64,000 nt of DNA from a virus. A program made the position numbers and the translations under genes. The notes beneath the pieces were generated by a model that was not told the origin of the DNA, searched no databases, and saw nothing but the letters and a program-made list of their open reading frames with translations. Shown in pieces: positions 11,669 to 62,499 of this stretch (within the stretch, counting starts at the first letter, position 1; every line of letters begins with the position of its first letter). The stretch spans positions 47,262 through 111,261 of IMG/VR virus record IMGVR_UViG_3300031649_000001. The stretch is one strand, 5' to 3'.

Positions 11669-12910
11669 ATGGCCGCCAAGACCACCGCCACCGTCGAGAC
11701 CACCATCACCACCCTGACCGGCGAGGCCTTCGCGACCGTCGGCTGGTCCACCAGCCGCACCAAGGTAGACGAGGTCCGCGAGTACAAGTGGACCGCCCCC
11801 CACGCCCTCAAGGTGTGGCGCTTCGCCCGCATGGACGACCAGTGGTTCGGCTTCTGCTGGAAGTGCGACGGCGCCGGGAACATCGGCTACGGCCCCGACA
11901 ACGGCGTCTGCTGGGAGTGCTCCGGCCACGGCCTCCGCGACTACTGGACGGTCGGCGAGGAGTTCGACACCAAGCTCCGCAACATCGAGCGCTCCGTGAA
12001 GGCCGAGTCCACCAAGCAGGCCAAGGCTATCGCCGCCCGCCACGCCGAGATCGCCGAGTGGCGCGCCGCCAACCCCGAGCTGATCACCTGGGCCGAGGCC
12101 AAGACCCCCACCGGCACCGAGCCCCACGAGGTCCTGACCGGAGAGACCCAGGACGTGTACGACGGCTACACCCCCAACGTCCAGTACGCCATCCGCTGCG
12201 TCCGCTACGGCACCGCCCTGGACCGCAAGCTCACCGGCCTGCTCCGCAAGGTGATCGCCGACGAGGCCAACGCCCCGGCCGTCAAGCCCAGCCGCCACGC
12301 CGGTGCGGAGGGCGACCGCCCGACCATCACCGGCAAGGTCGTCATGTGGCGCAACAACGAGGAGGACGGCTACCTCACCGTCAAGGTGGAGGGCGAGGGC
12401 GCCGACACCGGCATCACCTTCTTCACCAACACCAGTTCCGCCTCCGCCTACGAGCTGGAGGAGGGCGACCTGGTGATGGTCAAGGCGACCATTAAGCGCA
12501 ACGAGGTGTACCGGGTGACCGGCCAGAAGTCGGACCGCGTCGGCCGCGCCGTCTTCACCAAGGTCGACGAGATCCCCGCCCCCGCCGCGCCGGTCGCCAC
12601 GGTCGCTGAGACGGCCCCGCAGGCGCCGGTTGAGACCCCGGCCCCGGCCGCCCCCGCCAGCGAGCCCACGACCCCGCAGAGCGACGCCACGCCCGTCCGC
12701 AAGACCGGCCGCCGCGCAGCCCAGGGCGCGTCCTCCGTGGACGGCTGGGAGCTGCTCTACGACAAGCCCAAGGCGGGCGCCGAGGTGGTCCGCAAGGACG
12801 GCCGCTACGCCCTCGCCTGCAAGACCCACCGCACCCTCCACCACCTGGACCGCCTCTCCGACGAGGGCAAGGTCCGCAAGGCGGGCGGCTGGTGCACCGA
12901 GTGCCACTGA
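11669..12910 (+). CDS. WELLYDK-family protein 1 (CxxCxGxG zinc finger, OB-fold-like region, conserved C-terminal module)
   Basis: CWKCDGAG/CWECSGHG; C-terminus GWELLYDKPKAGAEV...ACKTH...WCTECH. Confidence 0.85.
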   Translation: MAAKTTATVETTITTLTGEAFATVGWSTSRTKVDEVREYKWTAPHALKVWRFARMDDQWFGFCWKCDGAGNIGYGPDNGVCWECSGHGLRDYWTVGEEFDTKLRNIERSVKAESTKQAKAIAARHAEIAEWRAANPELITWAEAKTPTGTEPHEVLTGETQDVYDGYTPNVQYAIRCVRYGTALDRKLTGLLRKVIADEANAPAVKPSRHAGAEGDRPTITGKVVMWRNNEEDGYLTVKVEGEGADTGITFFTNTSSASAYELEEGDLVMVKATIKRNEVYRVTGQKSDRVGRAVFTKVDEIPAPAAPVATVAETAPQAPVETPAPAAPASEPTTPQSDATPVRKTGRRAAQGASSVDGWELLYDKPKAGAEVVRKDGRYALACKTHRTLHHLDRLSDEGKVRKAGGWCTECH

Positions 12911-12966
12911 CCGCCCCGCCCCCCGGCCGCCCGGCCGGGGGGCCGATCCACGCAGATAGAGAGCGC

Positions 12967-13446
12967 ATGTTCACCAAGGAGTGGTACGCCGACCCCGCCG
13001 ACCTGATGCGCGGCTGGGTGACGCTGACCGAGCACACCCAGTGGTCCCCGACCCGGGGCTGGGAGATCACCGGCTACACCGTCCACGCCACCCACTGGAG
13101 CCTGCCCGAGGGCGAGCCCGGGTTCCTCCCCCACAGCACCGGCCAGCCCATCGCCGAGTGGGCCGACGCGCTGGCCGCGTACGTGGACCGGCTGTCGGAG
13201 CTGGACGCCGCCAACCGGCAGAAGCCCGCGCCGCTCCCGCCGCAGGTGCAGACCCTGACCGGGCTGGCCGACATCCGGTGGGTGCGCCTGTCGGAACTCA
13301 AGGACGGCGACCACATCAAGGACTCCCACGGCTGGCAGGTGATCCAGGACGTGGAGCACGCCGACGGCCGTACCCGCTGGAGCCTGGTCGGCGACGACCA
13401 CCGCGCCGTGTGGCCTTCCAGCCAGGCCATCCAGCGCACCACCTGA
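12967..13446 (+). CDS. Hypothetical protein
   Basis: Preceded by ATCCACGCAGATAGAGAG; GC3 bias. Confidence 0.7.
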   Translation: MFTKEWYADPADLMRGWVTLTEHTQWSPTRGWEITGYTVHATHWSLPEGEPGFLPHSTGQPIAEWADALAAYVDRLSELDAANRQKPAPLPPQVQTLTGLADIRWVRLSELKDGDHIKDSHGWQVIQDVEHADGRTRWSLVGDDHRAVWPSSQAIQRTT

Positions 13447-13478
13447 TCCACGCAGACAGAGAGAGGACCAAGCCAGCC

Positions 13479-13724
13479 ATGATCCTGCGCCAGTACCGCC
13501 TGACCCTGACCCACTACCGCGACAGCAAGGTGATCGGGGAGCCGGTCATCGTGCCCGCCCCCCACCACGCCGGTGACCTCCTGGTCCACGACGGCGACGT
13601 GTGGGAGGTGATCCGCTGCGAGACCCAGCTCCCCGACCCGCGCGAGACGGCCGAGGAGGCCCGCGAGCCCATCGAGGTGAACGTCGTGGTCGGCGAGGTC
13701 GCGGACCACCTGACCGACCGCTGA
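13479..13724 (+). CDS. Hypothetical protein
   Basis: Preceded by TGATCCACGCAGACAGAGAGAGG. Confidence 0.7.
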   Translation: MILRQYRLTLTHYRDSKVIGEPVIVPAPHHAGDLLVHDGDVWEVIRCETQLPDPRETAEEAREPIEVNVVVGEVADHLTDR

Positions 13725-13755
13725 TCCACGCAGACCGAGAAAGAGGACGCACCGC

Positions 13756-60910: not shown

Positions 60911-60931
60911 CTCCAGCCGAAGGAGCCCACC

Positions 60932-61675
60932 ATGGCCCGCCTCCTCTCCGCCGCCGCCCTCCGCGAGACCGTTCACTGCGCCGGTTGCGGCGACCTGAAC
61001 CCCGCCGACGACGGCGACGGCTACACCGTCTGCTGCAACAAGCGCGTCTGCACCGGGTGGGGCTGGAGCAAGACCGAGGGCTGCTGCGGCGAGACGGCCG
61101 CCCGCCTGGCCGACGAGCGCCACCGCGCCTCCCGCAACCCGAACCTGGACCGCCACATGGCGGAGGTCGCCGCGAAGCTGGAGGCCGCCGACGCGAAGGG
61201 TGTCCACACCCACGCGGCCGTCCGGGTGGGCGTGGGCGCCACGCAGTCCGGGCCGGTCCTGGCCTGGCGCTACGACTCCGAGGTGGAGGGCTACGGCGAC
61301 ATCACCCTCGTGAACTACAAGGGCGAGGAGCTGTACGCGCCGCTGACGGACGTCATGCTGCACGACATCCGGCCGTGCTGGGACCGCTGCAAGCACGCCC
61401 CCGCCGTCCCGGCGCCGGTGGTGGAGGTCAAGGAGATGACGGCCGCCCGCCCGGCCGCCCGTACCACCCGCGCCGCCCTGGGCGCCGCCTCCGCCCCCGG
61501 CTGGGAGCTGCTCTACGACAAGCCGAAGGCGGGCGCCGAGGTCGGCCGCCGGGCCAAGGGTGAGAAGTCCGAGTACGCGCTGATCTGCAAGGCTCACGGC
61601 CACGTCCACCCGCTGGCCCGCCTGAGCGACGAGGGCCAGGTCCGCAAGGCGGGCGGCTGGTGCCCGTCCTGCTGA
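60932..61675 (+). CDS. WELLYDK-family protein 6
   Basis: N-terminal HCAGC...CC...C...CC; C-terminal GWELLYDKPKAG...WCPSC. Confidence 0.85.
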   Translation: MARLLSAAALRETVHCAGCGDLNPADDGDGYTVCCNKRVCTGWGWSKTEGCCGETAARLADERHRASRNPNLDRHMAEVAAKLEAADAKGVHTHAAVRVGVGATQSGPVLAWRYDSEVEGYGDITLVNYKGEELYAPLTDVMLHDIRPCWDRCKHAPAVPAPVVEVKEMTAARPAARTTRAALGAASAPGWELLYDKPKAGAEVGRRAKGEKSEYALICKAHGHVHPLARLSDEGQVRKAGGWCPSC

Positions 61676-61831
61676 GTTCCCGCCCCACCGCCCGCCCGTC
61701 TGGCCGCCCGGCCGGGCGGGCGGCCGTGTGTCCATATCTGTTCAGGAGCCGGGGTCGCTGTGCTACTGCGTGAGGAGTTCGCGCAGGTCGGCGGGCACTC
61801 ACGGCTCCGCTCCGCACTCCGGGCCTGCCTG

Positions 61832-61922
61832 ATCCCCGTGGATTGATGAGACACGGGGTTTGCATTCGCCGAACGGCGTATGCAATACTGGTGTCACACC
61901 GGGGGGCAAGAGCCCCCACCAC
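61832..61922 (+). promoter_or_regulatory. 12-bp palindrome, dyad promoter cassette and stem-loop
   Basis: Same consensus, 18-bp spacer. Confidence 0.9.
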
Positions 61923-61944
61923 CTCCCTCCCGAAGGAGCCCACC

Positions 61945-62499
61945 ATGGCCGCCACCTCTTACACCGTCGCCGCTGCCGCCGAGTTCGCCGCCAAGCCCTA
62001 CGCCAACCTGGCCGCCGCCAAGCGCGAGGCCAACCGCCGGGCGCAGGCCACCGGGCTGGAGGTCACCGTCACCACCGTCGCCACCGGCCGCCTGAGCTAC
62101 ACCGCCGTCGCCGAGCCGCTGGTCATCGCGGACCAGGCCGAGGTGGAGGCCGCTCTCGCCGCCGAGGACCGCGCCGACGCCCTGACCGGCGTGGCCGCCG
62201 TCCTGTCCGCGATGGTCGTCAAGACCGCCGCCCGCATCGAGGCCGCTCCCAACGGCCCGGCCCCCCGCCGCCCCCGCAAGGCCGTCACCGGCCGCCGGGC
62301 GGGCCTGGGCGAGTCGGCCGCCAGGGGCTGGGAGCTGCTGTACGACAAGCCGCGCCAGGCCGCTCAGGTCGGCCGCCGCGACGGCCAGTACGCCCTGATC
62401 TGCGTGAACACGGGCACCGCCTACGCGCTCGGCAAGCTGGTGGACGAGCGGGGCGCCCGCAAGGCTGGCGGCTGGTGCGCCGCCGGGTGCAAGCACTGA
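61945..62499 (+). CDS. WELLYDK-family protein 7
   Basis: GWELLYDKPRQAAQVGRR...ICVNT...WCAAGC. Confidence 0.85.
   Translation: MAATSYTVAAAAEFAAKPYANLAAAKREANRRAQATGLEVTVTTVATGRLSYTAVAEPLVIADQAEVEAALAAEDRADALTGVAAVLSAMVVKTAARIEAAPNGPAPRRPRKAVTGRRAGLGESAARGWELLYDKPRQAAQVGRRDGQYALICVNTGTAYALGKLVDERGARKAGGWCAAGCKH

Follow-up and report, generated by a model that had tools for sequence, protein, structure and literature searches.

Why should one phage carry seven different genes that all end in the same protein module? The question is raised by a 64,000-nt stretch of viral DNA (called the window below) that forms the right-hand 64 kb, positions 47262-111261, of IMG/VR record IMGVR_UViG_3300031649_000001, a phage record of 111,261 bp with a GC content of 71% that was judged 98% complete. 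An earlier note, made from the letters alone, had pointed to seven proteins with a common C-terminal module marked by the motif WELLYDK. The phage record under study is here named G000 and its seven module-bearing proteins W1 to W7. These proteins belong to a genuine domain family that had no name before, is combinatorial in its architecture and occurs in little-known large Streptomyces phages. The module is best explained, with a probability of about 0.4, as an autonomous zinc-stabilised nucleic-acid anchor that would act much as the CapR, DUF723 and DUF4379 domains do and would be tethered to small binding domains.

All seven open reading frames (ORFs) were verified, and all end in the shared module, at the coordinates and on the strands that the earlier note had given (Table 1). 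Each has an AGGAG-type ribosome-binding site ahead of its ATG, and their GC content at third codon positions (GC3) of 0.87-0.95 is the same as that of genuine genes of this genome. Five of them form the cluster at 57.8-62.5 kb that had been described. A six-frame search with a regular expression found exactly seven W[ED]L[LIVM][YF][DE] sites accompanied by the remainder of the module, and searching the complete 111,261-bp record at the protein level likewise gave exactly seven module copies, every one inside the window. The module is about 76 aa long, bears the signature GW(E/D)LLYDKP and has the ligand layout C-x2-H...C-x2-C. Alignment of the seven copies revealed 24 invariant columns (R12, G16, G22, W23, L25, L26, Y27, D28, K29, P30, A34, V36, R38, Y43, A44, L45, C47, L56, L59, E62, R66, W71, C72 and C75). 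In a larger alignment of 56 diverse relatives, which has its own numbering, Cys 51 and 76 were invariant and R12, G22, W23, Y27, H54, W75 and C79 were at least 90% conserved. The copy in W7 lacks the His (CVNTG) and has WCAAGC, the altered WCxxxC form that had been noticed earlier.

An AlphaFold2 model of the W6 module, built with 56 sequences, had a mean predicted local distance difference test score (pLDDT) of 86.6 and contained strands at 24-29, 34-41, 44-51 and 57-60 and a helix at 65-72. The candidate ligands C51 and H54 follow strand 3, while C76 and C79 lie at the chain end, an arrangement in which four strands and one helix would be clamped by C-x2-H and C-x2-C zinc ligands. In a model of the whole W7 protein (pLDDT 88.5) the module reached 95-97. 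Proteins of 74-99 aa that consist of the module only also exist; the module is an autonomous domain, and its constant position behind flexible Ala/Pro linkers was borne out. It is basic (median isoelectric point 9.36 and median net charge +5 over 77 modules), and the N-terminal parts of the family are acidic to neutral. Its ratio of nonsynonymous to synonymous substitution rates (dN/dS, by the NG86 [Nei-Gojobori] method) between G000 and its sister phage G001 (a 108,671-bp IMG/VR record with a 90% identical capsid protein) was 0.29-0.63, the genome median being 0.55.

The module proved as nameless as had been supposed. When checked against characterised domains, it gave no match in Pfam, PHROGs or NCBIfam for the seven proteins or for 56 relatives at E<=1e-3, nothing significant among PDB sequences (best E 0.27), and no Foldseek hit of its model to the PDB at E<=0.001. 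Structural comparison by VIA-align with DNA-binding folds of the AP2 / integrase arm type (three strands plus a helix) gave Z 2.8 both for 6sy0_A (root-mean-square deviation [rmsd] 4.4, 54 residues aligned) and for 3jtz_A (rmsd 3.4, 53 aligned). Neither the module in tblastn nor the 57-63 kb region in megablast matched any of 50,697 cultured phage records, and a full-text literature search for 'WELLYDK' returned no paper. When 1.84 billion representative proteins were searched with a profile, 51 clusters had the module, 39 of them below 1e-10; the ten clusters inspected were all singletons, mostly on short metagenome contigs. It was present in only two of 401 sampled Streptomyces genomes. Of 25 viral contigs that encode a related capsid protein, 24 lacked it and the other gave a marginal match (E=0.004). 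Three further phages with related capsid proteins carry it: G004 (84% capsid identity to G000; a 106,095-bp contig in the assembly of Streptomyces andamanensis PCU 347), G003 (76%; several contigs of Streptomyces sp. NPDC051907) and G002 (40%; a 52,450-bp phage with direct terminal repeats).

The N-terminal parts were divided into units by BLAST and iterated hidden Markov model (HMM) searches with 25 genomic and 51 database proteins. About ten units were defined (A, Fz, D3a, D3b, K, W4N, Gg, W1N, W6mid and W2mid), mostly domains of 55-105 aa with one of about 285 aa, and several are rich in Cys and His. Fz is an HC..CC finger, K ends in CKxC, W1N is large, and W2mid is acidic with a CGC..C motif. 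The A domain (58 aa) was modelled with a pLDDT of 92-97 as strands at 6-8, 17-19, 40-44 and 50-54 and a helix at 22-36. The N-termini had been described as mostly unrelated, which has to be corrected: the A domain is common to W2 and W7, the HC..CC finger to W6 and a long reading of W3, and all the pieces recur, shuffled, in relatives. The combinations seen with A were A+module, A+W2mid+module and Fz+A+module; those with Fz were Fz+W6mid+module, Fz+D3a+D3b+module, Fz+D3a+module, Fz+D3b+module and Fz+D3b+Gg+module. The other architectures were D3a+Gg+module, D3a+K+module, D3b+module, Gg+module, K+module, W4N+module and the module alone. The swapping of N-termini is thus more extensive than had been claimed, with some ten small domains recombined in many orders. 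The module was the most C-terminal unit in all but five of the 76 proteins, the exceptions being P0039 (module followed by an HNH endonuclease), P0043 (a chromosomal Streptomyces protein with a coiled coil followed by two modules) and P0041, P0045 and P0049, which have a C-terminal extension. None of the N-terminal domains was found without the module in G000, in G002 or in 50 kb of G001.

The commonest form was A+module (29 proteins, including most of the divergent members), and the single copy in G002 carries an A domain with the module, in the same architecture as W2. This copy lies near RecT/exonuclease genes, as does W2 (about 3.6 kb away). From its frequency among divergent members and from the G002 copy, A+module is probably the ancestral form, and the ancestor may have been a single-copy gene near RecT/exonuclease genes that later expanded to 4-7 paralogues in Streptomyces phages of 106-111 kb. 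The earlier note had named occurrence as a single copy with a fixed N-terminus in relatives as a finding that would count against it; the relatives go half way towards this, since the module occurs once, with an A domain, in the 52-kb G002 and A+module dominates among the divergent members.

Copy numbers were seven in G000 and G001, six in G003, four in G004 and one in G002. W1, W2, W3, W4, W5 and W7 have orthologues in G001, with N-termini 53-93% identical (53% for W1); the orthologues of W3, W4, W5 and W7 were 69, 88, 66 and 76% identical, respectively. An orthologue of W6 was looked for in G001 and not found, and G001 has a Gg+module gene (L002, 10289-10822) with no counterpart in G000; members of the family are gained and lost at the gene cluster. 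In a tree of modules, orthologous copies from different genomes grouped together, in preference to the copies of any one genome. It follows that the paralogues are old and have escaped homogenisation; gene conversion among them was considered and rejected on this ground. For W1, whose N-terminus by eye contains CxxCxGxG fingers followed by an OB-like stretch, ten orthologues are known, all hypothetical, with weak matches to PHROGs of unknown function.

If the module is a nucleic-acid anchor, this basic domain would bind nucleic acid, probably DNA, in the manner of the CapR, DUF723 and DUF4379 zinc fingers, which are about 60 aa long and supply the DNA address of phage homing endonucleases. Between one and three small non-enzymatic domains, out of a closed repertoire of about ten, are joined to it through a flexible linker (Ala/Pro or acidic), and these (A, the HC..CC finger, fingers of the CKxC type) would presumably add protein or nucleic-acid contacts. 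Both the fusion to an HNH endonuclease in P0039 and the two tandem modules of P0043 fit a nucleic-acid role; the rest of the 66 proteins have neither. In the ESM Atlas the module lay nearest to DUF723/DUF4379/CapR clusters (feature score 0.90-0.91), and the structure search of the Atlas gave a template modelling (TM) score of 0.44 to a cluster carrying DUF723/DUF4379/CapR; for W7 the Atlas returned no usable feature match. In the module, 21-22 residues that include a conserved R separate C-x2-H from W-C-P-x-C; this layout agrees with that of a zinc finger as a resemblance of motif only, and the Streptomyces DUF4379 repeats (W-x-C-x2-4-H...R...G-C-P-x-C) resemble the module by eye.

Several results weigh against this explanation. 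Between 4 and 10% of shuffled proteins reached the ESM Atlas score range of the module. The Pfam HMMs of DUF4379, DUF723 and CapR gave no match at E<=10 in six-frame translations of G000, G001 and G002. Alignment by hhalign of 77 modules with 22 Streptomyces DUF4379 repeats gave a local score of 15.8 (P=0.013, probability 3.4%), the reversed control scored 16.2, and three of 60 column shuffles reached at least 15.8. A VIA-align structural comparison of the module with 48,161 chains had a best Z of 4.3, under the informative level of the tool. A nuclease partner was present in only one of 66 proteins, P0039, and the basic charge fits binding to an acidic protein surface as well. The last point concerns a 12-bp palindrome, ATCYNCGNRGAT (for example ATCCACGCAGAT), with 59 sites in G000, 39 in G001 and 4 in G002; controls with the reversed pattern gave 0, and each of the 25 viral contigs with a related capsid, none of which has a clear module match, had 0-1 sites. 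Palindrome and module thus co-occur, but at least 15 other genes of G002 are common to G000 and absent from ten complete relatives. This pattern therefore fails to single out the module, and the co-occurrence was rejected as module-specific evidence.

Membership in DUF4379 (PF14311), DUF723 (PF05265) or CapR (PF21817) was also considered; it failed the sequence tests, among them hmmscan, which recovered none of the three either in the seven proteins (E<=1) or in the 56 relatives (E<=1e-3), and only a likeness in the way of working is plausible. Of the two mechanisms put forward in the earlier note, putative docking on DNA is nonetheless the better supported, by the charge of the module, the HNH fusion and the ESM Atlas lead.

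The main rival is that the module docks on a protein, a single abundant hub such as RNA polymerase or a replication/recombination or defence protein, to which it would bring varied binders. We regard this as unlikely, and less so than the other alternatives discussed below. A constant module, a flexible linker and variable small domains are what such docking would lead one to expect, and no DNA-binding family passes the sequence test. The weak structural neighbours of the module include an anti-Cas protein (7eni_C, Z 4.2), AcrF1 (Z 2.9) and MmoD, and those of the A domain include AcrIF9 (Z 3.7) and, as the best, the T4 antitoxin Dmd (5hy3_B, Z 4.9, rmsd 2.7 Å, 53 of 57 residues aligned, sequence identity 6%), all these scores lying under the informative range of the tool. 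Foldseek matched the A domain to RB69 Dmd (5i8j_B) at E=2.1 and a probability of 0.23; with the W7 model it found nothing in the PDB at E<=0.001 and, in BFVD, only uncharacterised small phage proteins, many of which matched about 55 residues of the A domain. Rates of evolution bear on the same question. The N-termini of W1, W2 and W3 evolve fast relative to the module, as expected in an arms race, with NG86 dN/dS values against G001 of 1.42, 1.04 and 0.91, among the highest of the genome. Such values are also expected from the disordered Ala/Pro and acidic linkers that these regions include, and NG86 is unreliable at a GC3 near 0.9. The high values are suggestive only, and their cause could be an arms race or simply relaxed constraint on linkers. 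Docking on a protein also accounts less well than DNA binding for the HNH fusion and for the protein with tandem modules.

A different division of labour, which is considered improbable, would make the module itself the active part, for example a small inhibitor or regulator that the N-terminal domains only modulate, through stability, timing or autoinhibition by the acidic stretches, the paralogues being variants of dosage or timing and not different cargoes. The module is the most conserved part of these proteins, module-only proteins are presumably functional, and the acidic N-terminal part of W2 (net charge -26) could mask its +8 module. On the other side, six orthologous N-terminal architectures have been kept between G000 and G001, and the A domain is folded with high confidence and conserved over long distances in its 29 proteins, so the N-terminal domains are argued to have functions of their own. 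In the searches of Pfam, PHROGs and NCBIfam no N-terminal part matched an enzyme or a toxin; the idea of an effector arsenal found no support.

Nor did the suggestion that the module is a signal for capsid packaging or co-injection, by which the seven proteins would be loaded into capsids; this is judged highly improbable. W1 does lie within the structural-gene region, and a tag common to diverse proteins has a formal likeness to capsid-targeting sequences. The capsid-targeting sequence of T4 is a short N-terminal peptide that is removed by the prohead protease, whereas the tag here is a folded, zinc-type domain at the C terminus. Moreover, six of the seven are located in the non-structural arm, where recombination genes are their neighbours and have the same upstream cassette, and neither the module-only proteins nor the HNH fusion nor the chromosomal two-module P0043 fits packaging.

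The genes may also hold a clue to how the combinations arise. Each is preceded by a conserved element of about 95 nt and followed by a G/C-rich inverted repeat; each paralogue is a unit of its own made of upstream cassette, gene and G/C hairpin. The cassette consists, in order, of (often) the 12-bp palindrome ATCCNCGNGGAT, a dyad (GAGACACG..TTTGCA..N17..TGCAAT/TAATCT..GGTGTCACAC), a G6-7/C6-7 hairpin and AGGAG. A dyad promoter cassette proper to each gene had been proposed, and a cassette is indeed found ahead of each; the same cassette (dyad, hairpin and Shine-Dalgarno [SD] sequence) also precedes about ten non-family genes and is therefore a feature of this genome arm, not of the family. Its role as a promoter is putative, since a scan of 57-63 kb for E. 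coli-type sigma-70 promoters called none of these and one terminator-like site, counts that shuffled sequence would also give. Cassette copies were 84-92% identical and modules 62-84% identical at the DNA level, and the two flank the variable N-terminal segment. A conserved 5' cassette and a conserved 3' module provide the layout that swapping by homologous recombination would require, and new combinations would probably arise by recombination between these flanks.

The region ahead of W3 suggests a further use of the cassette. The Fz frame located there has no stop codon and runs on in frame across palindrome (12 bp), cassette, leader hairpin and SD sequence into W3 (57774-58802), making a long form of W3 (342 aa) possible beside the short one (229 aa). 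The open read-through is kept in G001, in G004 and in the metagenome proteins P0012, P0013, P0019 and P0021, the linkers of the metagenome proteins having diverged, and in these sequences one and the same head of Fz and cassette leads into different sets of domains. A bolder version of DNA docking, which we hold to be distinctly unlikely, would combine these elements: the module would be a common DNA address that docks combinatorial adaptors on the palindrome ATCYNCGNRGAT and/or on the dyad cassettes as a chromatin-like marking, and the cassettes would double as in-frame linkers and recombination joints with exon-like borders, as in Fz-cassette-W3.

In G000, matches to PHROGs were obtained for a major head protein, a major tail protein, a tape measure protein and minor tail proteins, as well as for a RecT-like annealing protein and a Cas4-like exonuclease; these genes mark it as a phage of siphovirus type. 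Cultured Gordonia and Mycobacterium phages have capsid proteins that share only about 31% identity with that of G000. Among sequencing runs, a root metagenome, which may be the source of the record, was the only one listed as holding the full sequence, and no RNA run was listed. The host is most likely Streptomyces, because close relatives by capsid (G003 and G004) come from Streptomyces assemblies. Further relatives of G000 were seen in such assemblies: P0056 lies on a 109,842-bp contig of S. longwoodensis and P0024 on a 103,011-bp contig of Streptomyces sp. NPDC059278, while loci L008 and L009 lie on the S. andamanensis PCU 347 contig and L005-L007 and L010 in Streptomyces sp. NPDC051907. 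Separate contigs of 103-110 kb in assemblies of Streptomyces isolates may reflect carriage as an extrachromosomal element. One in-frame TGA was observed inside each of the capsid-gene matches of G003 (C106:13346-15163) and G004 (C11:61093-62916).

Table 1. Module-bearing genes, cassettes and selected palindrome sites, in positions of the 64-kb window
Feature	Position	Strand	Description
W1 (413 aa)	11669-12910	+	Large N-terminal region, Ala/Pro linker, module 12680-12907
W2 (291 aa)	46529-47404	-	58-aa A domain, acidic middle with CGC..C motif, module 46532-46771
W3 (229 aa)	57774-58463	-	D3a + D3b, Ala/Pro linker, module 57777-58013
W4 (161 aa)	59532-60017	+	W4N domain (C..C..CxxC), module 59766-60014
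W5 (170 aa)	60283-60795	+	K domain ending LCKKC, module 60556-60792
W6 (247 aa)	60932-61675	+	HC..CC finger, W6mid domain, module 61436-61672
W7 (184 aa)	61945-62499	+	A domain, helical linker, module 62263-62496
Fz ORF without stop codon	58464-58802	-	HC..CC finger, ATG at 58802
Upstream cassette, variant form	11584-11622	+	Ahead of W1
Dyad cassette	47468-47507		Ahead of W2; matched on the + strand since it is a dyad
Upstream cassette	58511-58550	-	Ahead of W3, within the Fz-W3 open frame
Upstream cassette	59453-59491	+	Ahead of W4
Upstream cassette	60199-60237	+	Ahead of W5
Upstream cassette	60848-60886	+	Ahead of W6
Upstream cassette	61860-61899	+	Ahead of W7
Non-family cassette	43751-43789
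Non-family cassette	46390-46428
Non-family cassette	48417-48456
Non-family cassette	49753-49789
Non-family cassette	55824-55863
Non-family cassette	56222-56261
Non-family cassette	57041-57080
Palindrome site	58559-58570
Palindrome site	59425-59436
Palindrome site	60171-60182
Palindrome site	61832-61843

The module and its ten or so partner domains form an unnamed vocabulary that is recombined like building blocks. Should the module bind DNA, address modules of the homing-endonuclease type would have been reused for jobs other than that of a nuclease, and the family would offer a handle on how early expression is organised in these phages. Should its partner be a host protein, that protein would stand out as a hub under attack from these phages by several routes. 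Reading of the cassette as a protein linker, if true, would be an unusual way of producing isoforms of two lengths and of shuffling domains.

Among known systems, the internal proteins of T4 likewise carry a shared tag on otherwise different phage proteins, but the tag here is a folded 76-aa C-terminal domain of zinc type and its genes lie mostly in the non-structural arm. Polymorphic toxin and effector families likewise have constant and variable parts, arrays of paralogues and likely recombination at conserved flanks; in the present family the polarity is reversed, the constant part being C-terminal, there is no toxin or enzyme match in the databases searched, and no immunity-like partner genes were recognised. 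The closest parallel is with DUF723, DUF4379 and CapR, the zinc-finger DNA-binding domains of phage homing endonucleases, which are modular and often repeated (10.1101/2023.03.23.533998; PMC12350094). Like these domains, found in homing endonucleases of the T5orf172 and EDxHD/Vsr types, the module is about 60-76 aa long, with a Cys/His knuckle at a strand end and a G-x-C-P-x-C pair near its end; both are modular, occur in phages in recombined form, and can adjoin a nuclease or stand in tandem, with one case of each in the present family. The module differs from them in an additional beta portion on its N-terminal side, which bears the signature GWELLYDKP, and in being nearly always single and C-terminal, with 65 of 66 proteins lacking a nuclease. 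By analogy with the shuffled DNA-address modules of phage proteins (PMC12350094), it is likewise small and shuffled; its DNA binding being putative, the family pairs a constant module with small non-catalytic domains where those modules are paired with nucleases.

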